64,000 bases of DNA from Blastocystis sp. Blastoise (GCA_039096225.1 JBBPEB010000002.1:1-64000); one strand, 5' to 3'. Shown: positions 17,846 through 42,945, counted from the first letter of the stretch. The notes: a model not told the origin generated them from the letters alone. Numbers and translations are program-made.

Positions 17846-17891
17846 TAATAAAATTGTATTATTCGTTTTTTCTATTTTTATACTATTTATT

Positions 17892-21858: not shown

Positions 21859-21911
21859 AACAAAACAATAAAATAATTATGGTTTATTTAACAAATTAAA
21901 ATATAAAAAAA

Positions 21912-22949: not shown

Positions 22950-23019
22950 TTTATATGATTTTAATCAACAAAACAAAAAAAATAATTAATGATAAGTTAA
23001 AGATAAATAAATGATTTTA

Positions 23020-23700: not shown

Positions 23701-23799
23701 TTTTATTAAATGAATTAATTATGAAATTATAAACAAAACAATATTTTTTTTAGAATAATATAAAGTTGATACAAATAATAAAAATATCAAATAAATAAA

Positions 23800-25017
23800 T
23801 TAATTGGTAGCACCATCTCTAACAAATTTAACAAATATAAAATGAGCATATAAAGTATAAGGACCAGTAACAGTTCCACCAGTATATTCAGTTAATAATG
23901 AGATATTAACTTCACAACCACTACGCGTATTGACATCAACAACACTTGAAATAGGGAATATATAAATAGGTTGTTCATACCACTTTTCACCATTTAAAGG
24001 AGATTGAGGATGACTATTACATCTCCAAGTATTATAAAGCATAGCATTAGGGATAATTTGTGATGGATTCGTTGTTTTATACGTAGTAGGGAAATCCGTC
24101 TTTGGTAAGATATTTTGACCACCAATTTGGAATTGACATGATTTTAATAATTCAGTTTTAATAGGAATCATGCTCTTCTCTTGATTTGTGAAGTATAACA
24201 TACAATAATCAGGTACGAAAACAACACTTCTATTGGATAAGAATTGTTGTGGAGTTGGTGTACCTGATACTGATGCTTGTGAATAAACAGGTGTAGTGAA
24301 TGCAGATATCTGACAATTATTAGGAATACATTTAATCAAAGCACGTGGATCATTACCAAAATTAATATCATAGATTTGTTGAAGATGAATATAAACACGA
24401 TCAAATTTCAATGCAGTGATTACAGTGGTACCGGTAAATAGATTCTTTAAATAATTTGTAACGAATTGCATCTTCAAAGATTTTACTTTAATAGCATAAT
24501 CAAATGTACCAAGACCAGTAATAAGAGATAAAGGAATAATAACTTGAGCTTTTTCTTTCATTTCCATTCCAGCAATACTACTCAACGTGTTATTATATAA
24601 GCATTCTGTCATACTATACATAGATTTATCAATTTCATCTTTACTTAATTCTTTAATAGTAACAAATTTTCTTGCTTTACTGGATTCAATAGAAGATTCA
24701 GAATAATTAATAAGAATATCTTGACCAGTAGGAGATACAAACGTAAGATCTGTAGTAATTTTATCAATAATACTATAGATATTAGAATGTTGTACAACAG
24801 AACTAGTTGTAGCTGCATTTGTTGTAATATTGAAATTCAGTTCTAAGAATGAATTGCTGAAATCAATAAAAGGACTATCCACTGAATTATATAAGAATTC
24901 AAATGGATAAGGTTGATTTAATAAATCTTGACTTGTAGAAACTAGAATAGGAATTTGTACAGGTTTAATAGTTTGATTTGCCTTTGAAGGTAAGAATTGT
25001 CTTGGGAATCCTTCCAT
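23800..25017 (-). CDS. Major capsid protein, double jelly-roll, paralogue A (405 aa)
   Basis: N-terminal PFIDFSNSFLELNFNIT is typical of Polinton/PLV MCPs; beta-rich; size and synteny fit. Confidence 0.75.
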   Translation of the reverse strand: MEGFPRQFLPSKANQTIKPVQIPILVSTSQDLLNQPYPFEFLYNSVDSPFIDFSNSFLELNFNITTNAATTSSVVQHSNIYSIIDKITTDLTFVSPTGQDILINYSESSIESSKARKFVTIKELSKDEIDKSMYSMTECLYNNTLSSIAGMEMKEKAQVIIPLSLITGLGTFDYAIKVKSLKMQFVTNYLKNLFTGTTVITALKFDRVYIHLQQIYDINFGNDPRALIKCIPNNCQISAFTTPVYSQASVSGTPTPQQFLSNRSVVFVPDYCMLYFTNQEKSMIPIKTELLKSCQFQIGGQNILPKTDFPTTYKTTNPSQIIPNAMLYNTWRCNSHPQSPLNGEKWYEQPIYIFPISSVVDVNTRSGCEVNISLLTEYTGGTVTGPYTLYAHFIFVKFVRDGATN

Positions 25018-25194
25018 GTTAATAATTATTGTTTATATATATTTTTTTTAACAAAATAAAAATAAATAATAATAATATTTTATAATTATTAATTAATTTT
25101 AATTTTTATAACAAAACAAATGATTGTATTATAGAATAGAATAGAATTAATTAAACAAGTTAACGTTAAGAATAGTAAGTAAGAAATATTAAAT

Positions 25195-26688
25195 TTAAAT
25201 ATCACGCACACTACGTACAGCAATCATATGTAAGGTATAAGGAGAACTATCACTTAGATCAGTAGTAGTATGTTTATAAATACCAGCATGAGAAGCTACC
25301 GTATAAGAGGCAGTATCAGCTTCCCAGTGATATTTTGTCTTTTTATCTGTTGGATCAACGTAACTTTTCCATTGACACGTTTGTCCATCAGGAACAGTGG
25401 ATGAATCAATATGTTCATATTTAACATCATGAACATCAACATTACAATCGAAATTCAATTCAATACCACTATCTGATTGGATATTCATTAATGATTTTGT
25501 TGGAATAATATAAATAGGATGTTTAATCCATTCATCATATTTAAGAATAGTTTCAGGATTTGAATTATCAGCCCATAAACAATATAAATTCTTATTAGGA
25601 CAAGATAAACTAGTAGTTTCTGCATTATTGAAGACATGACCTTTTGTAGTAAGATTATGATAATACATTTGAGTAGGGAATTCAGTTTGAGGGAACATTT
25701 GAACATCACCAATCAAACAACTTTGATATGTTGGCCATACATTTGGACTAGCTATATTACTAATAGTTGTTGAACTATAACCATTTGTAAACCAAAATAA
25801 TATATATTCAGGTATAAATGGTAAAGCTCTATTGATATTGAAATGATCACTAGTTATTCTTGTATTTTGATAATCGACTTGAATACATGTAGGTATAGTT
25901 TTATATAATTCATTCGTTTGGAATTGAATATCTTTATAAGTCATTAAATTCATAGTAGCTGATTCCAATTCAAATGTCTTAAACCATTTTTCATCAGTTA
26001 GATGTAACCATTGTGTTGATAGATCTTTACCACCATTCTTGAAATAAATACTCATATTATTATCAATTAAGGATTCAATTGTACTTGTTCTAAATAGCAT
26101 ATTGAAATGTTTAGTTAATATTAATGAATCTCCATCAACACCTAAACCACTAATAAGATATAAAGGAATAGCAATATGAATAGATTGTTTTGGATGTGCA
26201 CGTATATAACGAATAGAATTCAATTCATAAGTATCTGCAGATAAATCCTCACCATACATAGATTTTTCTAAATCATTCTTACTGATATCTTTTAATAAAA
26301 TCATTTTACGACCACGTGAAGCATGTGTACAGTTTTCTTCATATTTTAAAGCACGATCGGATCCATCAGGTAAAGTATAAACCATTTCAACATCAGTGGA
26401 ATCAATAATAGAATAAATATTTGCTTTTTGAACTAATTGATCCAAGAAATATTGACATAATTGATCATAAGTGAAACTAACAGAAGTACCTGTTTCATCT
26501 AAATAAACAGAAACTGGTCCAGCTTTATCTGTTACAGTTGCCTTGACAGTAAGATCCAAATAGGATTGATTGAAATTGATATAAGTATTATCCACATTAG
26601 TCCAATGATATTGAAAGATATAAGGACTTGATAGAATATCAGTATCACTTTGAATAGGAATATTATCTTTAATTCTTAAGATTCTCAT
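25195..26688 (-). CDS. Major capsid protein paralogue B (497 aa)
   Basis: Colinear with 23800-25017: YINFNQSYLDL, NIYSIID, KSMY, IPLxLIxGLG, F(I/V)P(E/D)Y, P(Q/K)T(E/D)FPT, PIYIxP, PYTL, plus extra insertions. Confidence 0.75.
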   Translation of the reverse strand: MRILRIKDNIPIQSDTDILSSPYIFQYHWTNVDNTYINFNQSYLDLTVKATVTDKAGPVSVYLDETGTSVSFTYDQLCQYFLDQLVQKANIYSIIDSTDVEMVYTLPDGSDRALKYEENCTHASRGRKMILLKDISKNDLEKSMYGEDLSADTYELNSIRYIRAHPKQSIHIAIPLYLISGLGVDGDSLILTKHFNMLFRTSTIESLIDNNMSIYFKNGGKDLSTQWLHLTDEKWFKTFELESATMNLMTYKDIQFQTNELYKTIPTCIQVDYQNTRITSDHFNINRALPFIPEYILFWFTNGYSSTTISNIASPNVWPTYQSCLIGDVQMFPQTEFPTQMYYHNLTTKGHVFNNAETTSLSCPNKNLYCLWADNSNPETILKYDEWIKHPIYIIPTKSLMNIQSDSGIELNFDCNVDVHDVKYEHIDSSTVPDGQTCQWKSYVDPTDKKTKYHWEADTASYTVASHAGIYKHTTTDLSDSSPYTLHMIAVRSVRDI

Positions 26689-26781
26689 ATTTCTTTTTAT
26701 TTTAAATAAATATTAATAAATAAATAAAATTAAATAATTTTTATAAATTAATATAAATTATTATTTTATAAATTAGAAAAT

Positions 26782-29267
26782 ATGGAACTTGATGATGATA
26801 ATTATGAAGAACAGACTTCATTAGAAGAGAAGGATACTCGTATTAAAACACATGTAGTCCCTATTGATGTTCATTGTATTGATAATCAATTCAATATACA
26901 TTTATCGAATTCTATTGATATCACTAAAAATATCATTTCTTATATTGATCTTAATTTAATTGGTAGTGAAAGTGTGCCTCTATTTGATACATTCACAAAA
27001 ACACAAATATTCAAATATATAAATACTCGTGTTAATGGAAATAATAACAAATTCAAACAATCACTTTAGATCAGAAAAATTATTCAATTCCACAATTATT
27101 AGAACTATGTCATTTTGATATATGTGATAGGCCATTAATAAGTGAATCTCCTGATATCGATTCTACTGTTAAAATTAAGAAAATTCCAACAATTACAATT
27201 AATAGAGATGATTTTTATTGTGAATTTTATATTGCTAAAACAAGACGTGGTTTTAATTTCCCAAAAGGAACTTATACAGATATAGAATTTTGGTGGATCG
27301 CTGTTTGTTTGGTATCTTCTGTATGGTTAGATAACAAAAATCGACTGATGATGAAATATGATGATGATAATATAATATTATATCGACCCAAAACAACTTC
27401 TTTTCCTATTCCTGTTAGAACAACAGGGACTTATTCATTAAAAGAATATGCAAATAATGGTGTATTTAGTAAGTTCATTCATGATATTCCTACACAAAGT
27501 AGTGATGGAACAATTCAATGTGTAATTAATGAAGAACATGATTTTTATTTTCCAAATGTAACTTCTCCAAATATAAATATGATTCTGAAAATGGAAAATA
27601 GTTTATTTACTGGTTTATTTGACGGTAATGGAACACTAATACACACTGGAAATAAACCAGAAATTGTTTTACAAAGAATTAAGAATCCAGTTAAACATGA
27701 TGATATATTTAATATCAAAACATTAATTACTGTTGAAGATGGATATAATACAATGATTGTTCGACAATTGAGTGGTTATGATGGTGTTCATGAAACTACA
27801 TTCACTGTTCCTCCAGGTGACTATATTGAAGACGAATTCTATGATTTATTAGAAAGTTCAATCAATAATACAATTTATACTGATTATTTAAATATATCCA
27901 AAGATGCTCAAACTATGGACGATAAGGATGGATATATTTTATATTTATCATTTCAAGATATTGATTCAACATCATGGACATTTACAGCTATGGATATAGA
28001 GCACTCCTTATTTAAGTATCGTGGTGCTCTACATAATATACGTCCTGATTTAGTTTATGATGAACAAGGATGTTTTGCTTGGCATGTATCTTATGGTAAA
28101 CAATTATTACCAGATACACCTGTTGATTTGAATACATTAGATTTAGATGGTAATTATAAGTGTTATACTGATAGTCATCATATAGATTTCTCTCAAGCTC
28201 AAGAATTAGGTGAAATCTTAGGTTATAATAAATTAGGTCATGATGAAATTGTTAATTATGGTGTTCATAATATTGATAGTAGTCGTCCAAAAGGAATGTT
28301 AATAGCTCAATCGAATATAGTAGATAATAGTCAGAATTCTTTATATTCATTCAATGTGAATAATTATAAAGGCAATAATGAATTTCATGATATTATGAAT
28401 ATTAATGTGTCTCCTTATTTAAATACTATTCAAGATATTATTATACGATATACTGATAAAAATAAACAATATGTGAATTTCAATAATAATTGTATTTTAA
28501 GAGGATTCTTAGAATTCTCAGATACAGTCGATACGATTCAACCTAGTGAAACCATTAAGAAATTATGTTTGAATTGTTTAACAGCAGACACACAATTCTA
28601 TGCTGAATATCCTACATTGAATATCCAGAATAAGATCTTAAAAGATATTATTATTCAGAATGATACTGATACGATCCAAACAAATGCATCTAAATTATGT
28701 ACTGGATATATAAATGGATCTTATTATCCTACATTTAGTTTTCCTTTATCTGATAAATATGTTACATATAGTAATATAAATTCTCCAATCACCATTGATC
28801 ATCATATAGATTTAAGATTTGATGAATTATTCAAAGGAAATATCATTTGTAATATATGTGAACCGAATGGTAGTGATATACGTTTCAAAGCTTATGATGA
28901 AGTATATTGTGATTTTAGTACGAGTAAGAATTTAATTTATGAATTGAAGAAAACCAATGTCTATGGATATCAATATTTAACTAATATACAAATTATATCA
29001 GTGTATGGTCAATCCACTGATTACTTATATCCTATTTCATTAAGATGTTTTACTAATGAATATGAGAATAATATTCATGTTATTGATACTACAAATCTAC
29101 CTTATTACTATTCTAATGGTATTAAATATGAAGGTATATCAAATAAGATCAATAAGAATGTTTATTATTGTAATCGTAAATTATTAAAGTTATTACCTCA
29201 TGATAATATGTTCTTTATTACTTGTGATTATCCTTGTGTTGTTTTATTAACTATCTCTTATATATAA
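26782..29267 (+). CDS. Large penton-like/spike protein (~828 aa if joined), split by a frameshift near 27048-27069
   Basis: The downstream frame is open from 27048 with no ATG until ~27345 and overlaps the end of ORF 26782-27069. Penton-like motifs ITLDQKNYS, FPKGTY, VPPGDY, DIIIRYTDKNKQYVNF. No 3'-end motif between the parts. Confidence 0.6.
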
Positions 29268-29335
29268 ATATTTTAATTCATTTCATTTAAATTAAAAATG
29301 TTTTGTTATATTATTCATTTAAAAATTATTAAAAA

Positions 29336-29758
29336 ATGGAGCCTAAATCTGTATCTGAATCCTTACATTCTTTATCAAGTACAAGTTCAACAAGTTCAGA
29401 TAGTTCAACAACAACCACATTATCCGAAGAAGAAATAGAAAAGAAAAATACTTTATTAGAATTTATTATAAAAGCTATAAAATGTTTATTTGAGAAATCA
29501 ACTGAATTCTTTCAATTAATTGTTAAAAATATAGATATTCATTGTAATTGTTGTAATCCACAAACAAAGAAAGTCTATTATAAGACAATGAAAATACAAC
29601 AAACTATTATAGAAGAAGAAGTCAAACATATATCTGAAGTCTTGAATGAATTAGAAGAAATCGATTCTAATCAAAATGAATCAATACAAGAATTAGCTGT
29701 TCAATTAATGAAATTAAATATAAGTGTTGATTCTATTGTTCAATCTCTTCATTTATAA
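29336..29758 (+). CDS. PLV hypothetical protein (140 aa)
   Basis: Intact ATG ORF with Ser/Thr-rich N-terminus, HCNCC and helical C-terminus; 3' motif at 29793. Confidence 0.7.
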   Translation: MEPKSVSESLHSLSSTSSTSSDSSTTTTLSEEEIEKKNTLLEFIIKAIKCLFEKSTEFFQLIVKNIDIHCNCCNPQTKKVYYKTMKIQQTIIEEEVKHISEVLNELEEIDSNQNESIQELAVQLMKLNISVDSIVQSLHL

Positions 29759-29825
29759 TTCTATGAAATGTTATAAAATATTAATAATAAATTTGTTTTG
29801 TTTATAAATAATTTAATTTTTAATA

Positions 29826-31622
29826 ATGCAATCAACAGGTTATTCAGATAAAGATTGTGAAGAATTCTTTACAAATTGTATAGATCAATTATTACATTGG
29901 AAGAAAATACAATTATCAACAAGTATAAATTGGAAGAAATGGATAAAGACAATATGTAAGAAATTTCGTAATGAAGAACGAATTCAAATAGATGATATGG
30001 AAGAACCATTCTTTTGTGTAGAAGTGTTAACAGATCCATTTCAATTTCAAAATGTTATGCAACATACACAAACAGAAGCTCCTGGACAACAAGGTAGATT
30101 ATCCAATACTACTGTAGCTAATTATATGCAAATGATTACTTATATAATGAAAAATATATCTATTTGTACAGATGATGAAGATATCATTAATTATAAAGCA
30201 TTTACTCCACAAAATATAAAGAAATGGGAACATTTATGGGGTTCTTTACAAATTGATGCTACTTATTCAAGACATTATGAAATCACTCAGAAAATTATTA
30301 ATTGTGAAGCTGATTGGGGAGAAATCATTAATATCACCAAAAAGAATTATTTAGAGAATCCTAATGATTTATATTATGTGAATAGTTATTTATTAGTTTT
30401 AACTTATGATACATTATGTGCTCGTAATGATTATAATGATTGTGTAATCTATACTCGTGGTCAACAAATTCCTTTATCGTTAAGAAGAACAACCAATTAT
30501 ATTGATTTAAATACTTTGACTATTCATGTGAATGATACAAAGAATCGATTTGAAATTGGTAAGAATGAATATCCTACTTATCAGTATTTATCAGAAGAAT
30601 ATTTAAATGTCTTAGCTAGATCCTTACGTTTATTTCCAAGACATTATTTATTTGTTACTGAGAATGGTGGTAAAGTACGTGATTTGAAATTTGGTGATGA
30701 ATATATAAAACCTCATTTAGGATGGATTTATAAAACACAACAGAATAATTCTTTAATTAATGGTTGTGATATTATAAGACATTTATTTGCTCAATATTAT
30801 TATAGATTATCAAGAGAAGCACAATTCCAACATGATGATTCAGAACATGAATCTAAAGGTGTAGAACTCTTTGAAAATTCTATTATGAAGATGTTACACA
30901 GTCAATCAACACATATGGAAAATTATATATCTCCTTATTTATCTTCTCATTCAACTAAATTGCAAGATTTAGATAATAAAACAAGAACATTTCATATTGA
31001 TATGAATAATATTACTTATACAAGAGAAATTAATCAATTGAATAAATTATTATTTTTATGTAAACGATTTAATGATCGTATAGAACAATATGAAGAAGAC
31101 TATGAAGATGTATTTGGTAAAGAGAATTTCAATATGAAATCAGAATCGATATTATCTACATTAGAACAATATTCATCAGATAATGATACTATAATGATTA
31201 CATTAAGATATTATAAAGATCTATTAAAGCATCATTATCCAGATAAAACAGATTTAGAAAATGAATTACCTGTAGGATGTTCATTAGAATCTGAAGAAGT
31301 CCCAGAGAATTCTAGAGATCGTTATAATCGTTTTATACGTAATAAACAATTATTACCTGATCATTTACATAATAATACAACAGATTCAGAATTAACGAAT
31401 ACTCAAGCATCTCTTATGCAACAGAATACCCAAGATGAAAACTCTACACCTATAGTTATGAATAATTCAGATACTTATGCATTACGTAGTCTTTCTACTA
31501 TGCCTCCTTTAGACCCTATTCATCGGGGTCATGGTTTATTGAAAAAACATAAAGGTAATGCATTCTTTAAAGTCAAAGTCCCTAAAAAACATTTTCATGG
31601 AATTCAATTTAAATTTTATTAA
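29826..31622 (+). CDS. Tyrosine recombinase-family protein, large (598 aa)
   Basis: Catalytic series LCARNDY (R), NDTKN (K), CDIIRHLFA (xxxR), MLHS (H), THMENY (Y), colinear with ORF 40432; long C-terminal extension. Confidence 0.75.
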   Translation: MQSTGYSDKDCEEFFTNCIDQLLHWKKIQLSTSINWKKWIKTICKKFRNEERIQIDDMEEPFFCVEVLTDPFQFQNVMQHTQTEAPGQQGRLSNTTVANYMQMITYIMKNISICTDDEDIINYKAFTPQNIKKWEHLWGSLQIDATYSRHYEITQKIINCEADWGEIINITKKNYLENPNDLYYVNSYLLVLTYDTLCARNDYNDCVIYTRGQQIPLSLRRTTNYIDLNTLTIHVNDTKNRFEIGKNEYPTYQYLSEEYLNVLARSLRLFPRHYLFVTENGGKVRDLKFGDEYIKPHLGWIYKTQQNNSLINGCDIIRHLFAQYYYRLSREAQFQHDDSEHESKGVELFENSIMKMLHSQSTHMENYISPYLSSHSTKLQDLDNKTRTFHIDMNNITYTREINQLNKLLFLCKRFNDRIEQYEEDYEDVFGKENFNMKSESILSTLEQYSSDNDTIMITLRYYKDLLKHHYPDKTDLENELPVGCSLESEEVPENSRDRYNRFIRNKQLLPDHLHNNTTDSELTNTQASLMQQNTQDENSTPIVMNNSDTYALRSLSTMPPLDPIHRGHGLLKKHKGNAFFKVKVPKKHFHGIQFKFY

Positions 31623-31666
31623 TTTTAAAACAAAACAACTTTTTATAATAAAAAATAAATATAAAT

Positions 31667-34600
31667 TTAATTTGGTATAGCATATAAAGTATTATCTATT
31701 AAAATTCGTTTTGTTGATGACGTATTATGATATTGATCTTCACTATAAACAATTTCTTCTTTCTTAGATAAACAATTGGATAAACAGAATAAATCTGTAT
31801 CCACACAATTATTATAAGTATTATCAATCATTAAACCACAAATACCAATAGCATTCCCTCCCTTATAGAAATTTGAAGTATGTTTTCTATGAATATTCAC
31901 AATATCTATAGAATTAAATGTATCTTTACTACTTAAACAACCAAATAAAGCATTTGTAAATTTATCTAAATCTTTCTTAATCGTAAATTGATTATTATTA
32001 TTCACTTTCTTATAACTATTAAAAATATCTTCAATAGTAACTACATTCAAATAATAAGGATCTATAGTAATATGGTTATCAACAAAAGATTTCAAATCAT
32101 ATCCTTCTGTACTACGATCAAAGAATCGTTTCTTACATTCACTTATATGATATTCATTATCTAATTCATGCATATCTAATTGCATACTAGAATAGAAATA
32201 ATTACTTACTAGATAACTAAAGATAATTGAACGATTCTGATAGAATTTATCGGATAGAGTATAATCCATTTCATAATGATTTGGTTTCAATCTCTTTTCT
32301 ACTGTCTGTTTACGTTTCGGTAAATTATGATCTACATAATCTTCATATAAATTAGCATTACCAGGAGGGAAATAACGACAACATGATGGTAAGAAACAAA
32401 CTCTTCTTTCAATAGGACCAGCATTCACAGCAGTAGGTTGGATATTACTTGTCATAAATAAAGTACCCGTGAAATGAACTTTTGTAAATATATTACTGAA
32501 TAATTTACGAGCACTAGCACCTTCTTTCTTTTCTGCTATTTCTTTAAAGACTTTAGAAGAGAATGGATTGAATGTTTTCTTTCTACCAGTAACATCTTCT
32601 TCTATTAATTCATTCATATAATACATAGTCTTATTAGACATATCTACAATCTTAGGAGCTATAGATGTTTCTTCTAAATTATCTGGATTTACTATAATAC
32701 ATTGATTACTACCTACAATACGAGAAATTAAATCAGTTGTTATTGTTTTACCATTACTACCTGTACTACCATATAATATATAAGAAACAGTTTTCTGAGT
32801 ATTGACATAGAAAGCAGTGGTTAGGATACGTAACATAATACTTTCATATTTCTTATCGAATTCACAATATCTTGCATAATGTTGTTCAAATAATTGGATA
32901 ATATCTTTCTGTTCATTATTAATATTCCAACTTACATTAAATTCAGTATCAATTAATAAATCTTCAAATACCATATCTTCTTTATGATATGGTTGGATAT
33001 AATATTGTCTAGGATCTTCTTCTGTAGATTCTTTTGGATATAAATAACCAAGTTGTGTATAGATAACACGTTCTTTATGAACCATATACGTATCTAAATA
33101 TTCTTTATAAGATTTACCATAAGTCTTCAAATAACGATTCAACCATTCTTTATAATGATATTCATTAGTAACAGAAGCAGACATTATTTTATCAACTATT
33201 TTTTGATGTTGTTCATTCTCTTTGGAATATAATCTTGATAGTTTGAATTTCTCTACAATCGATTTCATAAATGTAGTTATTTTGGTTTCAAAGAAATTAA
33301 TATCATAATTATTCTTACAACGTCTTAAGATATTATATTCATCAAATGTATATAAGATAAAATTATCTTTATCTAATATAATAGAAACAATTTCATTAAA
33401 TTCTAATAATTGAAATAACATAACTAATGTTTGTGAATCTACAAGATTAAAGGATTGAATACATTCTAAAATAGACATAAATATGAAATCATTATCATCA
33501 TCTTTATTAAATAATTTATTCTCCATTAATATCTTCAAAATATAATTATTCGATAAATGAGTAGGATCAACTTGTATATGATTCCATGTAGATTCAATTA
33601 CATCATCACTTCGATCATGGCCATAACGTAATGAATAATTTTTAAATAATTCTAATCCTCTTGTTGTATTACAAATCTGTTTTGCTGCACAACATAATTT
33701 ATACCAAGTATTATGAGATTCAAAATAATTCATATCTTCAATAGAACCAATCAATAATAAATATCGTTCTAATAAAGCTTCTTTAGATGCTGTAGTATCC
33801 AATATAGTATCTGTAGAAATCAACATAGGAATATCTTTAATATCTTGTATAGAACATAATATAGTACGTGAACAATTATTTAATCTTTCATAATAACGTT
33901 TATAACGTGAATATTGTTTTAATTTATAAAAGATAATAGGATTAATAATATCACTTATAAGATCATCTTCATTCTTATAATTCAATAATGTTTTGAAATA
34001 ATAATGTTCATTGATTTCGCCTTCTATTTTCTTCCATGATTTATTGGTATATTCTTCATATAATTTATAAGTAGATGGAGAATTATCTTTACTACAACCA
34101 AGAAACATACAACCATTATTCTTTCTGGGTTTACCAATAACATTATAATCAATGAATTCTTTTATATCTAAATTATATGTTTTACATAAATCAACCAATT
34201 TGGTATTCAAAATCATACTATTATATAAGAAAAATAAATAATCACCATTTACAAACCAATTTGTATATATATGAATTCCCCATGAATAATGTATTTCATT
34301 ATGAACTGTCTTCTTATTCACTTCTTTCTTTGTATACACAAGCGAAATAAATTCTTGATTATAATAATGAATACAATGATTACATATTTCTTCAATAAAT
34401 TCATGAATAAAAGAATCTGTTAGAAAAGAAAAATCATTTGATATTTGGTGATAATCTAAATCAAACCATAATCTTCTATAATTAGTTGATGTATTACAAG
34501 GAGTACAATCAATATAATGTAATAATTCTTTTGGATTTTGATAATTAGTAAATAGACTTTTATAAAATGGTAATGGATTTGGTATAATAATTTCACTATG

Positions 34601-34669
34601 ATTATCTTTTGAATTATCATGATTAAAGGAACCAAAAGTATAAACAAAATGAATTTGTGAATTTTCCAT
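31667..34669 (-). CDS. AEP primase - PriCT-2 - D5/SF3 helicase (~1000 aa)
   Basis: AEP motifs LWFDLD, GIHIY, FID. PriCT-2-like NTWYKLCCAAK...LELFKNYS. Walker A YGSTGSNGKT, YYMNEL, LFMTSN, IERRV. First ATG at 34669. Confidence 0.9.
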   Translation of the reverse strand: MENSQIHFVYTFGSFNHDNSKDNHSEIIIPNPLPFYKSLFTNYQNPKELLHYIDCTPCNTSTNYRRLWFDLDYHQISNDFSFLTDSFIHEFIEEICNHCIHYYNQEFISLVYTKKEVNKKTVHNEIHYSWGIHIYTNWFVNGDYLFFLYNSMILNTKLVDLCKTYNLDIKEFIDYNVIGKPRKNNGCMFLGCSKDNSPSTYKLYEEYTNKSWKKIEGEINEHYYFKTLLNYKNEDDLISDIINPIIFYKLKQYSRYKRYYERLNNCSRTILCSIQDIKDIPMLISTDTILDTTASKEALLERYLLLIGSIEDMNYFESHNTWYKLCCAAKQICNTTRGLELFKNYSLRYGHDRSDDVIESTWNHIQVDPTHLSNNYILKILMENKLFNKDDDNDFIFMSILECIQSFNLVDSQTLVMLFQLLEFNEIVSIILDKDNFILYTFDEYNILRRCKNNYDINFFETKITTFMKSIVEKFKLSRLYSKENEQHQKIVDKIMSASVTNEYHYKEWLNRYLKTYGKSYKEYLDTYMVHKERVIYTQLGYLYPKESTEEDPRQYYIQPYHKEDMVFEDLLIDTEFNVSWNINNEQKDIIQLFEQHYARYCEFDKKYESIMLRILTTAFYVNTQKTVSYILYGSTGSNGKTITTDLISRIVGSNQCIIVNPDNLEETSIAPKIVDMSNKTMYYMNELIEEDVTGRKKTFNPFSSKVFKEIAEKKEGASARKLFSNIFTKVHFTGTLFMTSNIQPTAVNAGPIERRVCFLPSCCRYFPPGNANLYEDYVDHNLPKRKQTVEKRLKPNHYEMDYTLSDKFYQNRSIIFSYLVSNYFYSSMQLDMHELDNEYHISECKKRFFDRSTEGYDLKSFVDNHITIDPYYLNVVTIEDIFNSYKKVNNNNQFTIKKDLDKFTNALFGCLSSKDTFNSIDIVNIHRKHTSNFYKGGNAIGICGLMIDNTYNNCVDTDLFCLSNCLSKKEEIVYSEDQYHNTSSTKRILIDNTLYAIPN

Positions 34670-34755
34670 GATTATTTGACTTATAAATAATGAAAATAAA
34701 TATGGTATAAAATTCAAAACAAATAATATATTAAAGATTCTAGAAGTCAGTTTTG

Positions 34756-34904
34756 GAAGCTTCTAGAACATTCAAGAACCTTCTAGAACCTTCTAGAACA
34801 TTCTATAATAGTAAATATTACTTTATATTTTAAATGTTCTAGAACCTTCTAGAACCTTCTAGAACCTTCTAGAACCTTCTAGAACCTTCTAGAACCTTCT
34901 AGAA
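34756..34904. promoter_or_regulatory. Two long heat-shock-element arrays upstream of the primase-helicase
   Basis: 34756-34803: 10 alternating GAA/TTC pentamers. 34837-34904: TTCT(AGAACCTTCT)6AGAA, 14 perfect pentamers. Confidence 0.7.
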
Positions 34905-35014
34905 CATCCTTTTTATACTTTAGTGTTTTAAATGTATATACAATAAACAAAACAATTTTCAATGATTTTTTACAAGTTTATAAGTAAAAATAGAAAAATA
35001 AACAAGAAAAATAA

Positions 35015-35638
35015 TTAAATTTCAATTGGTTCTTGACTATTAATATATGTACATGAATGAGGCCATCCATTTTTATCATATAAAATACCATCCCAGAAAT
35101 ACATTTGTTTTGAAGGATCTCTTTTAATCTTGTTAATACTCTTAGCATGAACAACTTCATAAGAATAAACTTTACCTTTTTCATCATAAAGAAATCCATC
35201 TTCCATATGGAATTTCATAATATCAAAATCATCATCTTTAGAGTTCGAATGTTCTTTAGAATCTTCAGAACATAAAATAGTAGTTCTATCACTTTCTAAA
35301 AGATCTTCAGTATTGATAATATCTTGAATATCTTGTTCTTCATTAAGTTGTTGAGTATAAATATCAGCAGCGAATTCTTCATAATCTTCAAGACCTTTAA
35401 TAACCGCGTTTATACGTTTTAAAGCTGATCTATAGTTTTCGACTTCGAAAGAAGCAAGACGTTCTTTAGATTTTGCAATACCCAATAGATTCTTTTCTCT
35501 ATTCAATTGAGACTGATGTAAATCAATATCACGAAGAACATTCTTATGAACTTCAACAGCCTTCTTAGAATTCTTAAGAAGTTCCATACGAACAGTTTGA
35601 AGACATTTACGGGAATCAGCAGAAAGATTAAATTGCAT
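35015..35638 (-). CDS. PLV hypothetical coiled-coil protein (~207 aa)
   Basis: ATG at 35638 (MQFNLS...); 4-unit HSE at 35750-35767 upstream; 3' motif at 34946. Confidence 0.7.
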   Translation of the reverse strand: MQFNLSADSRKCLQTVRMELLKNSKKAVEVHKNVLRDIDLHQSQLNREKNLLGIAKSKERLASFEVENYRSALKRINAVIKGLEDYEEFAADIYTQQLNEEQDIQDIINTEDLLESDRTTILCSEDSKEHSNSKDDDFDIMKFHMEDGFLYDEKGKVYSYEVVHAKSINKIKRDPSKQMYFWDGILYDKNGWPHSCTYINSQEPIEI

Positions 35639-36036
35639 TATAATCGCGAATATCGTTACAGAGAGAAAATTTGTATTTATCAAAATGAAATAAATAATAC
35701 ATTTAAATGGAATATTAAATATTCTAGGAGACAGTGTAGAATCTCTATGGAATGTTCTAGAAGGTTCATTTGATTGGCTAATTTTGTCGACTTAGCATTT
35801 AGTATTTGTGTTTCAATGACGAGCATAGTCGGCATCTGTAATCTGATTGGATAAAAAAATTAGTAAAACACAATTAGACGATGACGACGATGTGTCATAC
35901 GAAATAAGTTATTTTATTGGCTTATTTTCCAGCTGGAAGCAATAGGCTTTTGTTAGCAACTGAAATGAAGAACTGTACACTAAAAATAGTATATTTAATA
36001 TATTGTATAAAAATACTTTTGAAGGTTTAAATAATC

Positions 36037-36564
36037 ATGGAAATTCCTGATAGTCTTTCTGCCAGTTTATCCCCTTTCGGTCAAGCCATGATATCCCCCT
36101 TGTTGAATCCATTTGAAAATAGTGTTTCTGCAAATCCTATGGCTTTACCCAATGATAATGATTTCTGTTTTAATTCGCGTGACGAAATCATGTTTGAAGA
36201 TCCACCTCAAGATATTCATCCAATCAATGATGTTTACGTATCTAAAAATCCAGATAGATATCATTCGGTTAACAATCAACCAATACAATTTCAAGATCAA
36301 GTAAATACAAATCCTGATAAGCAAGCATTATTATTTACAAATGAGGAGTTAACAAATATATCCAGTCAATTCGAATCTTTATTTCAAACTATTGAAACAG
36401 CTGATAATATATTAAATGGTATTTATTGTACTGTTGATCATTTAAAAACAAAGATTGAAAGTCAGAAACAAGATTTGAAACAGATTCATGATGATTCTAA
36501 AGAAATTGTTTCATTATTATCCGAATATTCTATTTCTTCTATGTCTGAAATATTTGATCATTAA
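36037..36564 (+). CDS. PLV hypothetical acidic/coiled-coil protein (175 aa)
   Basis: Intact ATG ORF, divergent from 35638 across a promoter with several ATTGG (CCAAT) boxes; 3' motif at 36588. Confidence 0.7.
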   Translation: MEIPDSLSASLSPFGQAMISPLLNPFENSVSANPMALPNDNDFCFNSRDEIMFEDPPQDIHPINDVYVSKNPDRYHSVNNQPIQFQDQVNTNPDKQALLFTNEELTNISSQFESLFQTIETADNILNGIYCTVDHLKTKIESQKQDLKQIHDDSKEIVSLLSEYSISSMSEIFDH

Positions 36565-36654
36565 TTATTTTTATTTAATTAATTATTTTGTTTTGTTTAT
36601 TTTTTTTAAAATTAATTACACAAAGTTTAAATGGAAAATAGAATAGTTTCAAAT

Positions 36655-36764
36655 AGAATTCTTGAATGGTCTAATGGATCTATTAAAGAAATATGTAACC
36701 ACAGTATCATGGTTCGATTCCGTTAAAATGTTTCCATTAGATTATTCAAGTGTTCTTTTTTTTT
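36655..36764 (+). ncRNA. Putative Pol III hairpin RNA (tRNA-type promoter; VA-RNA-like)
   Basis: A box TGGTCTAATGG 36667-36677 and B box GGTTCGATTCC 36711-36721 (44-nt start-to-start, as in tRNA). Stem 36661-36678 pairs with 36733-36750 over 18 bp. T9 terminator at 36756-36764. Confidence 0.65.
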
Positions 36765-36820
36765 CTAGAACCTTCTCGAACCTTCTAGAACCTTCTAGAA
36801 CCTTCTCAAACCTTCTCGAA
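36763..36820. promoter_or_regulatory. HSE array upstream of putative SSB
   Basis: 12 alternating TTC/GAA pentamers (1 mismatch), ~77 bp before ATG 36898. Confidence 0.65.
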
Positions 36821-36897
36821 AATTGATTCATTTGAAAAGAATATCGTAAAATATTAGTATTAAAATACTTATATTTTTACTAAATACTTAACTAAAA

Positions 36898-37491
36898 ATG
36901 TCTACAACTGAATTTAAAAAACCTACTATTCTTGATACTTCGAACTTTAATTTACAATGGGATGACACCAAAGAAAATGCTGTTCTTTTAAATAATAATC
37001 ATCGTGTATGTATTTCTACTGATGCTACACCATGTTTATTTGGTTATATTGTTACACGTGATAAATGGACTTTATTAACAATTGAAGATGATAATCAAGT
37101 ATTCTTAGCTGCTTATAAAGAACTTTATCGTAAATTATGTGAATTATGTCCTGATGGTGATATTGTTAATTTTGTACGTATGGATAATGGTAAATATAAG
37201 ATTACAATTAAAGTACCTATTAATGCATCGAAGAATGTTACTATTGATATTACTGATAAAAGAGATAAGAAGATTAATATCGGTAAAGATCCTAAGTTAA
37301 CTTACGAAGAAATACGTGAAAAGTATATTCCACCAAATACGTTATGTAAAGTATTATTTACAATACATGGTATTCATCGTTATAATAACAAGTATTATAT
37401 TGGTTTATATGCTCGTTCTATTAAAGTCATCGATAAATCTACGAAGAATACTAATAGTAATGATACTATTATTGATTTAACTAATTTATAA
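36898..37491 (+). CDS. Probable single-stranded DNA-binding protein (OB fold, T7 gp2.5/NCLDV-like)
   Basis: 197 aa; C-terminal IPPNTLCKVLFTIHGIHRYNNKYYIGLYARSIKV resembles the closing strands of viral SSBs. Pattern recognition only. Confidence 0.5.
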   Translation: MSTTEFKKPTILDTSNFNLQWDDTKENAVLLNNNHRVCISTDATPCLFGYIVTRDKWTLLTIEDDNQVFLAAYKELYRKLCELCPDGDIVNFVRMDNGKYKITIKVPINASKNVTIDITDKRDKKINIGKDPKLTYEEIREKYIPPNTLCKVLFTIHGIHRYNNKYYIGLYARSIKVIDKSTKNTNSNDTIIDLTNL

Positions 37492-37567
37492 ATTTTTAAT
37501 GTTAAATTTATTTTTTATTAATATATTTGTTTTGTTTATAAATAATTTTATAATTGAAATAAAAAAA

Positions 37568-39295
37568 ATGCAAAGTTGTATATTAGGAATGCCAAGTCCT
37601 GGTACTTTTGGTATGAATTTAATTTCAACTGGAAAAGAATATAGGCGATATAATACACAACCATTACATAAAATGGATCAATATAATCCAATATTTCATG
37701 AAATAGGTCCAAATTCATCTATGCCTGTGTCTACTTTAGAAAGTAAAGAAATACATGATGGTAAAGAAGATGATTATGTAGATCGTTCTAAAACATTTGG
37801 TAAAGATGCTGTTCCACAAGGAAATGGTGCTTTAATTCGTGCTAGAGCAGCAGGTAAAGGTATAATGAAAGCAGCTGGTCCAGAAGAAGATAAAATAGAT
37901 GGTGAAGATCGTCAATATAAAGTATTAAATCCATGTAAACCAAGACGTAAATCTGGTAGAGGAATTATTCCAAATAAATCAGAAATCAATAAATTAGAGA
38001 ATAATCAAGGTTCTGGTATTGGTGATGCAATTAAAAATAAAGTAAAAGATATGTATCAACGAAATGTATTAGATATAAGAGATGCTATTGTAGATAAAAA
38101 AGCTAATAGAAAAGCTCGTGATGCATTAGCTATTTTAGCTCAATATGTTGGTGATGGTCATCATGATCTTGATGATGAATTCAAAAGATTCTATGAACAT
38201 AAAATAAAACGTGGTGGAAAGATTCCTATATCTGTTGCTTCAGCAATTATGAATGCAATTAAAAATAAGAAAATGATTATTAATCCAAAATTAAGAAGAA
38301 TGTTAAGACCCTCTATTATACCAAAATATATAGATTTAGATTCAGCTCAAAGTGGTGATGGTATATTAAGAGTAAAAAGAGGTGGTGGATTCTGGAGCGG
38401 ATTAATGGATTATGCACCAGCTCTATTAGGTGTAGTTGATAAAGGTATGGATTCTTTTGCTAAAGGTAGAAAAGCTTATTATGATACACATTTGGCACAA
38501 CAATCAAGTGAATTAAATGATATGGAATTTGAAATGGAAAAATTAAAACGTCAACAAGCATTAAATGAAATGAAAAAGCAAATAGGTAATGGTATAGTAA
38601 TGGGAACAATTAATGATGGTTACGATACAGTTGAACGACAATCAGAATTATTAGATCAAGAAGTGCAACCATTAAGAGATTTGCACAGTATGAAACAACA
38701 ACTTAGAAAGAATCTTCCTGTTCGTCAACCACCTCCTCCAGCAGCACCCATTCAACCACAACCAGAAATTGAACCTGAATTGAATGTTGATACATTTGAT
38801 ATACCTCAAAATGATACACCAAGACATCCACAAACTCAACAACCTCCTCAACCTTATAAACCCATGTCTCGTGATGAACAAAGTTATCCTTATAAGATTT
38901 ATGGTTTCCCTCAAAATGATAAAGAGAAAGTCGATAGAAAATGGAAAGAAGATGAAAGGGATAAACGAATAGCTGCAAGAAGAGCTAAACGTAGAGGTTA
39001 TGGTGGTCGAGTTAAATTAAGTAAAGCAGAATTCTTAGAACGAATGAGAAGAGGAAAAGAAGCTAAAAAGAAAAGAGGTGGTGATTTGAATCCATTAGTA
39101 TCATTTTATACAGATTTTATAATACCTGCAGGAGTGGCACGAAAAAAACGTAAAATACAAGAGGCTGATTTAAAACAATTACAAATTATAAAACAGAAAA
39201 GAGATAATAATGAAACATTAAATGCAGGTGACGAATTGTTTTGGAAAAAAAAGAAATATATGTTATCAAAAAACTCAGGGGAGGGGATCTGGTAA
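37568..39295 (+). CDS. Basic core polyprotein with about 12 GxG/GG protease-site-like motifs (575 aa)
   Basis: Likely ATG 37568, after the upstream gene's 3' motif. Motifs QGNGA, AGKGI, SGRGI, QGSGI, KRGGK, SGDGI, KRGGG, IGNGI, GYGGR, KRGGD, SGEGI; Lys/Arg rich. Confidence 0.75.
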   Translation: MQSCILGMPSPGTFGMNLISTGKEYRRYNTQPLHKMDQYNPIFHEIGPNSSMPVSTLESKEIHDGKEDDYVDRSKTFGKDAVPQGNGALIRARAAGKGIMKAAGPEEDKIDGEDRQYKVLNPCKPRRKSGRGIIPNKSEINKLENNQGSGIGDAIKNKVKDMYQRNVLDIRDAIVDKKANRKARDALAILAQYVGDGHHDLDDEFKRFYEHKIKRGGKIPISVASAIMNAIKNKKMIINPKLRRMLRPSIIPKYIDLDSAQSGDGILRVKRGGGFWSGLMDYAPALLGVVDKGMDSFAKGRKAYYDTHLAQQSSELNDMEFEMEKLKRQQALNEMKKQIGNGIVMGTINDGYDTVERQSELLDQEVQPLRDLHSMKQQLRKNLPVRQPPPPAAPIQPQPEIEPELNVDTFDIPQNDTPRHPQTQQPPQPYKPMSRDEQSYPYKIYGFPQNDKEKVDRKWKEDERDKRIAARRAKRRGYGGRVKLSKAEFLERMRRGKEAKKKRGGDLNPLVSFYTDFIIPAGVARKKRKIQEADLKQLQIIKQKRDNNETLNAGDELFWKKKKYMLSKNSGEGIW

Positions 39296-39861
39296 AGAGT
39301 AAAGATGAGAAATTAATTCAAAATTCAATGAATTGCGATAATCCTATTATATCTGATAAAACTCGTCATGTTACTCCTAGATCCCCTGATAATTTCAAAC
39401 AAACTCTATCTCAATATTGTAATATACCAAATTCTTTAATATCTCAATTATATAATTATGCTTATTTAAATAAACCTACCTCTTCTGTTGCTTGTGATCG
39501 TGCTGAAAATGTTATGAAACAATTAAATAAAACGAATTCTCAATCTTATAATTATTATAATAGTTATGATGATTTTGAACAAAATATAGATCAAGATCAA
39601 ACTAAATTTAATATGATCTTTCATGAAAGTCCTAGTGATCCTTATAATGGTCATTTTGAAGCTGTTATTTATAATGGTAATAAAAACATAGAACACTATT
39701 CATCATTAGGAAATGAACCTACTTTTTCAAAATCATTTATTCAAAATCATAATATTCAATATAATCCTATTCAACACCAAAAAACTACAAGTAATGCAAA
39801 TGGTTGCTTTTATTATTCTTTACTTTATTTACTTTCTAATGGAAATCTTATGCCTTGTTAA
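39241..39861 (+). CDS. Adenain/Ulp1-like maturation cysteine protease, in -1 frame to the upstream ORF
   Basis: GHFEAV (His), EHYSSLG (cf. YFDSFG), QHQ...NGCFYYSLLYL (Gln, Cys). Overlaps the upstream ORF; first ATG only at 39328. Confidence 0.8.
   Translation: MEKKEIYVIKKLRGGDLVKSKDEKLIQNSMNCDNPIISDKTRHVTPRSPDNFKQTLSQYCNIPNSLISQLYNYAYLNKPTSSVACDRAENVMKQLNKTNSQSYNYYNSYDDFEQNIDQDQTKFNMIFHESPSDPYNGHFEAVIYNGNKNIEHYSSLGNEPTFSKSFIQNHNIQYNPIQHQKTTSNANGCFYYSLLYLLSNGNLMPC
39268..39387 (+). promoter_or_regulatory. Predicted -1 programmed ribosomal frameshift signal
   Basis: In-frame A AAA AAC 39268-39274 and a 7-nt spacer. Stems: 39282-39292/39377-39387 (11 bp), 39297-39302/39371-39376 (6 bp), 39304-39309/39362-39367 (6 bp). 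Confidence 0.75.
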
Positions 39862-39983
39862 AACATTCTAGAACATTCTAGAACATTCATTTTGAACTGG
39901 CTCTATTTGTAGAATCTTTAATTTATTATATTAGTATTTTATATAATTAATTTGTTTTGTTTAATCATTGGTTAATTTAAATA

Positions 39984-40358
39984 ATGAACAAGAAATATCT
40001 TAGTTATTCTTATTTTTGTCGTGTGATGAAGAATCTAAAAGAAGAAGGAATTAAATCCAAAAAGAATGAAATAGCGAATCTATTAGAACAATTTTTAAAT
40101 AATAATAACAACAAGAATCTTAGTGATTTGCAATTGAGTTACTGTAGAAATATGTTACTTTATATAGATGATCCTGTGATTCATCAACGTCTTGAAATGC
40201 TATTGGATAAACAATATATGAAGAATGAGAATCAATATCAAGATGATAAGAATCTTATTCAACCCAATAATATGTTTATGCCAACTATGAAAAGTAATCA
40301 ACAACAAAATCAATATCAAAATAATAATAATAATCTATCTTTCTTACCTTTTAATTAA
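39984..40358 (+). CDS. PLV hypothetical protein (124 aa)
   Basis: Intact ORF; 5-unit HSE at 39866-39888 upstream, 3' motif at 40382. Confidence 0.65.
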   Translation: MNKKYLSYSYFCRVMKNLKEEGIKSKKNEIANLLEQFLNNNNNKNLSDLQLSYCRNMLLYIDDPVIHQRLEMLLDKQYMKNENQYQDDKNLIQPNNMFMPTMKSNQQQNQYQNNNNNLSFLPFN

Positions 40359-40431
40359 TTTTTATATCCTTTTATTACTAGTTGTTTAGTTATATTCAAA
40401 ATTAAAACAAAACAAACATAAAAACATAAAA

Positions 40432-41367
40432 TTATTCAATTAATTTTTTAAATAAATTATTATTTTCTAAAGATACATAAGAATTAATATGTGTATAATC
40501 ATTATGACATAAAGCAGAAGCAGAATTTTCTATATCTTGGAATGTATTGGTTGTAGTTGTAGCATATAATTTTCTTAATGCATTAATGGTCAATTTTGGA
40601 TGGATTTGTTTTAAATGCTTATTCACAAACCAATCAAATGCTTTAGTAGTAAATCCAGTTCTTACAGAAGATTCAAATATAAATTTACGATTTGGATTTC
40701 TTTTTAAGAGTAATTCTAGATCTTCAATCAATTCTTTTGGTGCATCTAATTGAATTGTAGAGTATTTACCAGCAGTTTTATAATCATTTAATAGAATAGA
40801 ACCAGTATGTTTCTCTTTATCATAAACAATATAATTCTTATGAATAGCTGGATCAATAGTATCTTCTGGTGATAGAATGAATAATTGAGCATAATCAGCA
40901 CGAGCAGGAGGAAGATAGGAGTAAAAATCTAATATTAATCGTAATGGATTATAATTTTCTAATTTATCGTGATATTCATGTAAATATGGAGTCGTAATAC
41001 CATCTTTAATAAGATCTTGAATTAAAGTACGTTTCTTATTATCCAGATATTTTTCATACATTGAATTGATAATCACATAAAATTCACACCATTTATTTAA
41101 AATACCTTCTTTATTTAATGAAGAAACATTACGTATAATAAATAATATCAATTCACATAACGATTTCATTGGACTAATTTTGATTTTACGTTCATTTACC
41201 ATATAATCCATGAATGAATAAGGATTCTTCAAGAATTCTGAGAACTTTTTAAATGGTAATGGGAAAATATATAAATTGAAATAATTGGTTAAACGTTTTT
41301 TCCAAATATCAGAATAATTTGAATTCTGTATAACCAAAAGATACTTGTCATAATTTGTATTTTTCAT
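40432..41367 (-). CDS. Tyrosine recombinase/integrase (~311 aa)
   Basis: LPPARADY (R), NDYKTAGKY (K), LTINALRKLYAT (xxLR), LCHN (H), THINSY (Y). First ATG 41367; HSE array 41456-41503 upstream. Confidence 0.85.
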   Translation of the reverse strand: MKNTNYDKYLLVIQNSNYSDIWKKRLTNYFNLYIFPLPFKKFSEFLKNPYSFMDYMVNERKIKISPMKSLCELILFIIRNVSSLNKEGILNKWCEFYVIINSMYEKYLDNKKRTLIQDLIKDGITTPYLHEYHDKLENYNPLRLILDFYSYLPPARADYAQLFILSPEDTIDPAIHKNYIVYDKEKHTGSILLNDYKTAGKYSTIQLDAPKELIEDLELLLKRNPNRKFIFESSVRTGFTTKAFDWFVNKHLKQIHPKLTINALRKLYATTTTNTFQDIENSASALCHNDYTHINSYVSLENNNLFKKLIE

Positions 41368-41465
41368 TGATTTTCTCAAGTAGAATCTCTAAAACTTCTA
41401 TTTTCAAAAGAATAATACATAAGAAAATCAAAATAAAATATCTAAGATTCTCATGTTCTCGAATG

Positions 41466-42223
41466 TTCTAGAAGTTTCGAGAATGTTATAGAATGTTCTC
41501 GAAAATTTATATTTTTCCATAACGGTCGCTCATGTTTCCAAAAGTCTCTCGTTATAATCGTGGTGGTGGGTACATCTTTTTACAAGACCACACCACCACC
41601 AGCTTTTCTTTCACCCACTATAAATACATACCTTGATCACTTTACTCTTTTTATATATATTTTTTTATGATTATCATGACTTTTTATATTATTTATTGAT
41701 CACTATACATACATTTTTATTTTATATATTCCCGTGATTATTTTTATTATTTCTTTTTAGATAGAACCATCCATTTCATCTTTTCTCTATATAAAGGGAG
41801 GGTCGGGGTGTGTGTTTATTTAGCACATTCTGTGCTTCTTTTCGTATTTCTTTCTGTATTCCCGTGATTATTTTACTCACTTTACCAACGATGGAGCCAT
41901 TTCCCATGAATATTCCCTGTAAAGGGGAGGGTTGGACTGTGTATTTTATTTCTTTTATGATTACTATGAGTTTCTCCTTGATCACTTTACGTTTCACGTT
42001 GGAATCGGAACACAAATAAATTAAAAATAAATAAACATGGGGAAAAATAAAAATACACACACACTACCCTACACTCCCATGGTTATTTTACTTCAGAAAT
42101 GTTATTAATTCTTCCGTCGAGAACAAAAAGGGGGGATGACTTCCCCGCTTATGGCTGCGCGCGTCGCGCAGACTCTATGCGGGGTTTGCATACCCCCTTC
42201 TGCAGTTCGAAGAACGGAAGAAT
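41466..42223 (-). repeat. Right terminal inverted repeat (758 bp)
   Basis: Reverse complement of 17088-17845, including the terminal hairpin 42108-42223. Confidence 0.97.
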
Positions 42224-42945
42224 GAATTAAATATAAATAAACGTGATTATTATGAAATAAATATGCGTGCTAGCAGCATATTAATAATTCGTATAAATCG
42301 ATATTAGTTAATTAATTATAAACGATAAATTCTTGTTTTCATTATAAAACGAAAATATTGAATAGGAATTAGAATTATTTCGTAATATTGAGAGTAAACA
42401 TTCTAGCGGCGTGGTTCGCTTGTTAAGCATATTTGAAAATATTTTATTTTGACAATAATTATTTCCAACATAATGAAATAAAACTATTTTGTTATTTTAT
42501 CACACATTTTCGAAAAACAATAGTGATATCGTTAATAATATGGATAATTTATAACGGCATAAATGAATATATATATGATTTTTATATATTAATTTCATGA
42601 ATATCTAATTGTATCTGTGTATAAGTGATATATAGCCATATTAACATATAAATATATTAATTATGCTATTATTATCATTTTAATTGTGAATGGCAATTAA
42701 ATATGGTATATATTAGTATATTATAATGTACTATTAGTGTAAAACAAAAATCTAGTAAACTAATAACATTAGTAATGGAATATATACAAACATATAATTA
42801 GTAAAATATATTAAATAAAATAATATATACGCATATATATAAAGAGACTATATAATTAAAAATAATGAAATATATATATAATATATAAAAATATATAAAA
42901 ATTATATATTAAAATAGTTAATGAAATGATAAAGTAATATTTTTA

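Follow-up and report, generated by a model that had tools for sequence, protein, structure and literature searches.

A probable programmed -1 frameshift joins a core-like protein to a protease in a Polinton-like virus of Blastocystis

A 64,000-nucleotide (nt) stretch of DNA from Blastocystis sp. Blastoise (GCA_039096225.1 JBBPEB010000002.1:1-64000), hereafter called the window, was found to contain an endogenous Polinton-like virus (PLV). Between positions 37,568 and 39,861 this element encodes a basic, core-like protein and, overlapping its end in the -1 frame, a protease. Our analysis indicates that the protease is likely to be made by programmed -1 frameshifting as the C-terminal part of a predicted 764-residue core-protease fusion. 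The features concerned are the following.

37568..39295, plus strand: 575-residue basic open reading frame (ORF), putative core or structural precursor that supplies the zero frame of the fusion; the relative P0116 is homologous to it in its N-terminal part
39268..39274, plus strand: slippery heptamer A_AAA_AAC, in frame
39275..39281, plus strand: 7-nt spacer between heptamer and stem
39282..39387, plus strand: stem-loop predicted to stimulate frameshifting, with three helices that add up to 23 bp
39274..39861, plus strand: -1 frame of 195 codons with the LRGG junction and the predicted clan CE protease domain
39328..39330, plus strand: first ATG of the protease frame, within the hairpin loop; Leu in the fused relative P0115
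39953..39961, plus strand: TGTTTTGTT, first putative 3'-end motif past the core ORF

The zero frame of the core ORF ends ...TCA AAA AAC TCA GGG GAG GGG ATC TGG TAA, with the stop at 39293-39295, six codons past A_AAA_AAC. Translation in the -1 frame gives K K L R G G D L V K, and no stop interrupts it before 39861. Thus, an in-frame X_XXY_YYZ heptamer lies within the overlap and a predicted structure follows at a distance of 5-9 nt, as is canonical for -1 frameshifting. The overlap, the heptamer, the 7-nt spacer, the three-helix stem with its 4-nt bulge, the LRGG-D directly after the shift and a fusion of about 764 residues had all been proposed in the initial annotation, and each held on recomputation. 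Canonical in-frame heptamers are found 28 times across the 19 ORFs of the element; no other is followed by a structure as strong as that behind the site at 39268 (z -4.4, next -2.2), and this site alone opens onto a long -1 frame, the other 27 being followed by at most 16 codons.

The stem is composed of helices 39282-39292/39377-39387 (11 bp), 39297-39302/39371-39376 and 39304-39309/39362-39367, and the 4-nt 5' bulge at 39293-39296 contains the zero-frame stop. Its minimum free energy was -33.8 kcal/mol (z -3.61), a stability reached by none of 200 shuffled sequences and ranking first among 1175 windows of 110 nt on the plus strand of the element; pair probabilities were 0.72-1.0 in a 251-nt context. 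When the -1-frame peptide was recoded synonymously 1000 times, no version folded equally well (mean -15.7), nor did any of 1000 recodings in which the eight overlap codons were fixed (mean -18.7, best -33.5). Pairing between 39332-39340 and 39415-39423 could form a pseudoknot, but it would be rich in A/U and include two G-U pairs, and we make no claim for it.

The two frames appear to be carried on one transcript. The motif TGTTT(T)GTT is present on the sense strand within 100 nt of the stop in 15 of the 19 ORFs, the remaining four being the core ORF, a 95-residue ORF in a second overlap described below and two convergent ORFs. Convergent genes have it between them, the divergent pair 26688/26782 does not, and this distribution is compatible with a putative 3'-end role. 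As the initial annotation had stated, no copy of it lies between the core stop and the protease. The next one downstream is at 39953, implying a single transcript for both. A near match, TTGTTTTGG, was seen at 39236-39244 (plus strand) inside the core ORF, 24-32 nt upstream of the heptamer.

The 575-residue protein contains 107 Lys and Arg against 78 Asp and Glu, has [KR]GG at residues 217, 273 and 505, and gave no match in Pfam; the basic charge and the repeated GG sites suggest the designation as a core protein. All 21 annotated copies (20 named records and that of the window) end in KYMLSKNSGEGIW, whereas the 57 preceding residues exist in nine variants; at the protein level, at which the copies were compared, an indel in one copy is thus not the cause of the overlap. 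The copies (P0019-P0039) are mosaic: a swapped central segment gives lengths of 542, 548, 575 and 583 residues, and two C-terminal haplotypes are combined independently with it, which suggests recombination among integrated copies. A 494-residue ORF at 18134-19618 (minus strand) has an N-terminal domain in common with the core ORF (33% identity over 64 residues, E 8e-6) and is therefore probably a paralogous core-type precursor; weak likeness between the two was also seen in the RGG region.

Relatives of the protease are found both fused to a core and split from it. A protease search returned two clusters, and a full HMMER scan with P0018 returned nine proteins, all of which were inspected. 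Core and protease are joined in a single frame in three lineages, represented by P0018/P0002, P0115 and P0116, with 52%, 63% and 48% identity to the window protease, respectively. P0018/P0002 contains the C-terminal half of the core, PTGG and then SKDEDKIQDAMDCD; P0115 contains QWGG and then SKNEKLIQEHLDCD, with Leu at the position of the Met of the window. P0116 is full length (533 residues) and homologous to the core from residue 1 (E 1e-22). The product predicted to arise across the two frames in the window is thus a conserved form, present in three fused relatives, one of which lacks the ATG. On whether related copies carry both ORFs in one frame, a point raised by the initial annotation, the answer is divided: no annotated copy of the upstream protein does (21/21), but the three relatives do. 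In P0018 and P0115 the GG lies three residues ahead of S-K-[DN]-E. The substrate consensus of adenain is (M/L/I)xGG-X, and the initial annotation had read the junction in this way. That reading did not hold for the P4 Leu, since LRGG in the window corresponds to PTGG and QWGG in the fused relatives; the motif in common is GG, in two of the three fused forms.

The split lineage is the P0001 cluster of 15 members, located on contigs of up to 23,956 nt, none of which exceeds 190 residues. Eight of the 15 are called from the ATG equivalent to that of the window and five from a position 13 residues upstream of the Met. Between P0001 and the window 109 of 177 residues are identical downstream of the Met and 5 of 12 upstream of it; the upstream residues are conserved and free of stops in a lineage that is 60% identical. 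Stand-alone cores are also known. P0117 and P0118 end TLKGLAGF-stop and RLKVAGGF-stop, respectively, in register with SKNSGEGIW-stop of the window. Enumeration of codons showed that both ends permit U_UUA_AAA at the slip position together with G-G-[FILV]-L in the -1 frame, whereas the joint pattern of U_UUA_AAA and GG-x-L is permitted at only 5 of 1583 other core positions and, in the remaining proteins of the element, at 1 position of 2861. Moreover, P0001 has its called start at the Leu forced in the -1 frame of P0117 and P0118; a TTG that overlaps the core stop and was taken for a start codon would explain this, and P0117 may be the partner of P0001. These protein ends are strong circumstantial evidence, short of proof, for a slippery site in the same register.

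P0119 and P0120 are distant stand-alone proteases. In a tree of the protease domain, from which P0117 and P0118 were left out because they have no protease, split and fused forms interleave, and the window groups with the fused P0115 at 83/88. Two changes to the split state are needed across the bootstrap range; a single origin of this state is possible (starred branches).

The fold of the protease was predicted from an alignment of eight sequences, with a mean predicted local distance difference test (pLDDT) of 80.7 and low confidence before residue 25; a model from six sequences reached a pLDDT of 61 and gave no clear structural match. The best PDB matches in Foldseek were to Ulp1 (E 4.8e-4), with two matches at E of 0.001 or below. 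Among viral structures, the best match was a MELD-virus protease (E 2.5e-6, root mean square deviation (rmsd) 2.6 Å over 134 columns), followed by adintovirus adenain and Sputnik V9. The top 29 rows in VIA-align were all of clan CE type, led by OtDUB (Z 9.4, rmsd 2.8, 120 aligned) and including the adenovirus protease (Z 7.6, rmsd 3.1, 118 aligned). The modeled domain accordingly qualifies as clan CE (Ulp1/adenain-like). By sequence, searches of PDB gave nothing below E 0.5, Pfam gave no C5 or C48 match for the window protease or its close relatives, and the Atlas leads, Peptidase_C5 clusters among them, were all below 0.9. The catalytic positions, assigned by alignment, have the following codon starts.

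39652, plus strand: His127
39700, plus strand: Ser143, at the position of the triad acid
39778, plus strand: Gln169
39805, plus strand: Cys178

His127, Gln169 and Cys178 are invariant in all eight rows, the distant ones included. We had considered that the catalytic Cys might be replaced; the alignment with P0119 and P0120 shows that it is kept. At the third position of the triad, where Asp, Glu or Asn is expected, the window protein has none of these, and the distant rows have Asp (P0120) and Asn (P0119). All close rows retain a Glu two residues past the His, which might compensate. Within 39652-39807, the family has C-F/L in place of C-G after the catalytic Cys. The protease is likely to be active. 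GG sites are kept in all cores, and their cleavage by the protease is plausible because the mavirus protease MVP cuts GG/X and GY/G and is packaged in virions, as described in a portion of PMC6048507.

We propose the following course of expression. A single mRNA would extend from 37568 as far as the 3'-end motif at 39953. On it, most ribosomes would terminate at 39293, yielding the 575-residue basic protein. A minority, held up by the 23-bp stem that begins 7 nt past A_AAA_AAC, would slip by -1, avoid the stop and continue into the protease. Its core part would carry the fusion into particles, bringing in the protease at a fixed low ratio, and the clan CE domain may then cut at GG/X, including the GG after the shift site and the [KR]GG sites of the core, by analogy with mavirus MVP. 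The frameshift fusion put forward in the initial annotation is supported by the three in-frame relatives, the constant copies, the register of P0117 and P0118 and the predicted protease fold.

Several observations weigh against it. P0116 has no GG at the register of the junction. P0117 and P0118 are partial proteins with no protease seen behind them, and their register was fixed after the window had been viewed. DNA of the relatives was not confirmed in the viral, metagenome and genome contig collections scanned; conservation of heptamer and stem therefore rests on compatibility of the proteins and not on covariation. Of the 23 pairs of the stem, the peptides of P0001, P0008, P0115 and P0018 are compatible with 21, 20, 21 and 18, so that the in-frame fused P0115 is as compatible as the split P0001. 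The stem may consequently have been inherited or have another role, and since pair counts did not separate split from fused lineages, peptide compatibility was dropped as support. In the single sequencing run covered, which was listed with a small share, no read or contig spans the heptamer. All six close rows have Ser where the triad acid would stand, so that activity is not assured. Finally, splicing could yield an open fusion through 32 GT-AG pairs whose donors lie at or beyond 39000, a few of them with pyrimidine-rich acceptors.

Alternatively, the 177-residue protease might be made separately from the ATG at 39328, by reinitiation or from a transcript of its own, the hairpin being a 3'-end or pausing signal and the overlap a vestige of an ancestral fusion. 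Hairpins mark transcript 3' ends in Mimivirus and virophages. The ATG lies 33 nt past the core stop, is kept in P0001 and P0018 and is the called start of more than half of the P0001 cluster. In addition, the low confidence of the model before residue 25 suggests a domain independent of the upstream residues, and stem-compatible sequence is present in an in-frame relative as well. However, this ATG is placed within the loop of the most stable hairpin of the element's plus strand, lacks the A/T-only leader found at other ORFs and is replaced by Leu in P0115; the residues ahead of it are conserved without stops in the split lineage. A heptamer at 7 nt from the stem and the slippery-compatible ends of P0117 and P0118 would be left unexplained. 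We consider separate expression unlikely.

A short intron, e.g. 39238-39278 or 39262-39380, could also join the frames by removing the stop or shifting the frame. In favor of splicing, besides the 32 GT-AG pairs, intron-like GT-AG sequences are seen in the host region, and a second overlap in the element, at 27043-27069, ends in TTTAG and resembles an acceptor. The pairs are, however, poor in form: the donors for the pyrimidine-rich acceptors are GTTTTG or GTTATC, and most of the other acceptors are purine-rich. Longer introns would remove residues conserved in four lineages, the annotated copies are unspliced here without exception, and splicing would not explain the geometry of heptamer, spacer and stem. 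It is very unlikely to account for the overlap.

The gene might in truth be in frame, if the A6 run were systematically under-called in every copy or if the RNA polymerase slipped there. One added A in the run would fuse the frames as in the three relatives, and the site is covered by no independent read. Against this, every annotated copy agrees, and long ORFs elsewhere in the element stay intact from copy to copy (the 1000-residue ORF in 13 of 15 listed, the 311-residue recombinase in 10 of 10). The ORFs of the element hold 19 A/T runs of six, two of seven and one of eight, and the seven- and eight-base runs sit inside intact ORFs. Furthermore, the separate lineage of P0001, from other sources, is also split, and the heptamer deduced for P0117 and P0118 is not a homopolymer. 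Transcriptional slippage cannot be promoted by a hairpin that lies downstream of the site. We regard a systematic under-call as unlikely, and the in-frame explanation as a whole is even less probable than splicing. Over 39351-39503, which takes in the 3' arm of the stem, and over 39624-39775, contigs from the one sequencing run show no difference from the window; a 72-nt skip at 39476-39549 was set aside, as it occurred in a single contig at depth 2. Among the sequencing runs listed, none was of RNA. Tortoise Blastocystis assemblies were made from nanopore data with several rounds of Illumina polishing according to part of PMC10690189, and the same may apply to this window.

Least probable of all is a real frameshift onto a weak or dead protease that serves as a structural cap, for which the Ser143 in place of the acid and the lack of a Pfam C5/C48 match speak, whereas the invariant His127, Gln169 and Cys178 and the GG sites kept in all cores argue for an enzyme.

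The arrangement can be compared with known systems. Mavirus MVP, adenain, pS273R of African swine fever virus and I7L of poxviruses, which have the same fold as the protease of the element, are encoded as separate genes. Unlike these, the protein described here has Ser at the triad acid and is tethered to its likely substrate. Closer in organization is retroviral gag-pro. The part of PMC3835772 available gives A_AAA_AAC, followed by a spacer of 6-7 nt, as the site of mouse mammary tumor virus (MMTV), human T-cell leukemia virus types I and II (HTLV-I/II) and bovine leukemia virus (BLV), in agreement with the MMTV/HTLV signal named in the initial annotation. The spacer is usually 5-9 nt, and stem-loops are standard stimulators, e.g. 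in HTLV-II gag/pro (extract of PMC7618472). As in these retroviruses, heptamer, spacer and stem-loop connect a structural polyprotein to its maturation protease; in contrast to them, the element is a double-stranded DNA (dsDNA) PLV of a protist, its protease is a clan CE cysteine and not an aspartic protease, and the stimulator is a predicted 106-nt long-loop stem and not a compact pseudoknot.

The nearest precedent comes from adintoviruses, another case of -1 frameshifting predicted in Polinton-class viruses. In the sections accessible of Buck et al. (PMC11071296), -1 slippery sites are predicted at the ends of Penton genes and 'a similar relationship' is suggested for potential Hexon-Adenain fusions; one supplement file contains at least 12 'Hexain' names. 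In adintoviruses the major capsid protein is the partner, and in those sections the prediction stems from KnotInFrame without comparative or experimental support. The element differs in its basic core-like partner and in being a protist virus lacking pPolB, with copies, in-frame relatives and conservation of the register. Frameshifting in nuclear dsDNA viruses is reported for LANA1 of Kaposi's sarcoma-associated herpesvirus, EBNA1 of Epstein-Barr virus and the thymidine kinase of drug-resistant herpes simplex virus (part of PMC5009743); these are latency proteins or rescue of indels, unlike control of the ratio of a virion enzyme by heptamer and stem. A different, PolB-bearing MELD virus was found in Blastocystis hominis data (excerpt of PMC8502044). 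Word searches of the available text of PMC10120064, PMC11161782 and 10.64898/2026.10.13.758929 found no programmed frameshift. No core-protease frameshift in PLVs and no description of the element appeared in the literature searched, outside which most subscription papers lie. The initial annotation, which knew of no such case in PLVs or Polintons, therefore stands for the core-protease pair but overlooked the Penton extensions and potential Hexon-Adenain fusions predicted in PMC11071296. The proposed gag-pro logic in a dsDNA PLV is thus not a first: it was foreshadowed by one remark in a 2024 preprint and is better supported here.

The element itself has the following extent.

17084..42227, strand not assigned: endogenous PLV of 25.1 kb with 762-nt terminal inverted repeats (TIRs) at 17084-17845 and 41466-42227

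Its TIR arms are 762 nt each and 100% complementary. Proteins near-identical to those of the element are scattered over many contigs in NCBI records labeled Blastocystis sp. Blastoise, which identifies it as a multicopy endogenous PLV of this gut protist; a length within 15-40 kb, TIRs and multiple copies in a protist genome are among the marks of such viruses. At 61497-64000 the start of a second copy is seen, in which the TIR is 98% identical and the 494-residue ORF has diverged. The ORFs include two paralogous capsid-like proteins, a putative P-loop ATPase (345 residues, weak Pfam match to FtsK, E 0.049), a weak tyrosine-recombinase match (311 residues, phage integrase, E 0.084) and a 1000-residue ORF for which a Pfam scan gave no family. 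Neither PolB nor RVE integrase was matched by Pfam in the 14 ORFs scanned (five smaller ORFs of 95-207 residues lay outside the scan); among these 14, the protein-primed PolB and RVE integrase of a Polinton/Maverick in the strict sense are thus absent. The capsid-like genes are in tandem at 23800-25017 and 25195-26688 (minus strand), encoding 405 and 497 residues that are 28% identical. The 405-residue ORF scored 0.97 in the Atlas to viral clusters, one with 10% double-jelly-roll-like Pfam, and is two residues shorter than the eight other distinct sequences listed, all of 407 residues.

The second -1 overlap lies within 26782-29267 (plus strand), where the 95-residue ORF stops at 27069 and the frame of a 639-residue ORF is open from about 27043. 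Neither ORF is present as such in the protein collection. The overlap, 27043-27069, has no canonical heptamer and no stable structure (z +0.56), and it could be an intron with the TTTAG acceptor, an indel of this copy alone or recoding of a non-canonical kind. A 10-nt unit with the palindrome TCTAGA forms arrays in intergenic regions at 34713-34937 and 36725-36853, directly after the protease stop (39864-39888) and at the inner TIR edge (17799-17852); they are possible origins, promoters or recombinase sites. Beyond the element, 43078-46355 contains a 1002-residue minus-strand ORF with a low-complexity start, an upstream ORF and GC content above that of the flanks, in resemblance to a transposase region.

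For the family as a whole we suggest, with about even confidence, that the protease is always the tail of a GG-punctuated core polyprotein, that lineages alternate repeatedly between 1:1 in-frame and frameshift-throttled forms with A_AAA_AAC or U_UUA_AAA at one conserved position, and that catalysis relies on a His-Cys dyad, Ser standing in for the acid. The protease ORF as called from its ATG is absent from the protein collection, and the core and recombinase genes have consecutive locus tags in the named copies checked (e.g. 000657/000656). Such proteases can therefore be overlooked in annotation, and PLVs scored as protease-less. Virophages and PLVs need a maturation protease inside a closed capsid, and that of mavirus must be packaged during assembly (portion of PMC6048507). 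If the proposed mechanism is true, a frameshift-metered core-protease fusion would answer packaging and dose together, and a dsDNA virus would have converged on the retroviral gag-pro solution; the in-frame and split relatives would then constitute a natural experiment on protease stoichiometry.

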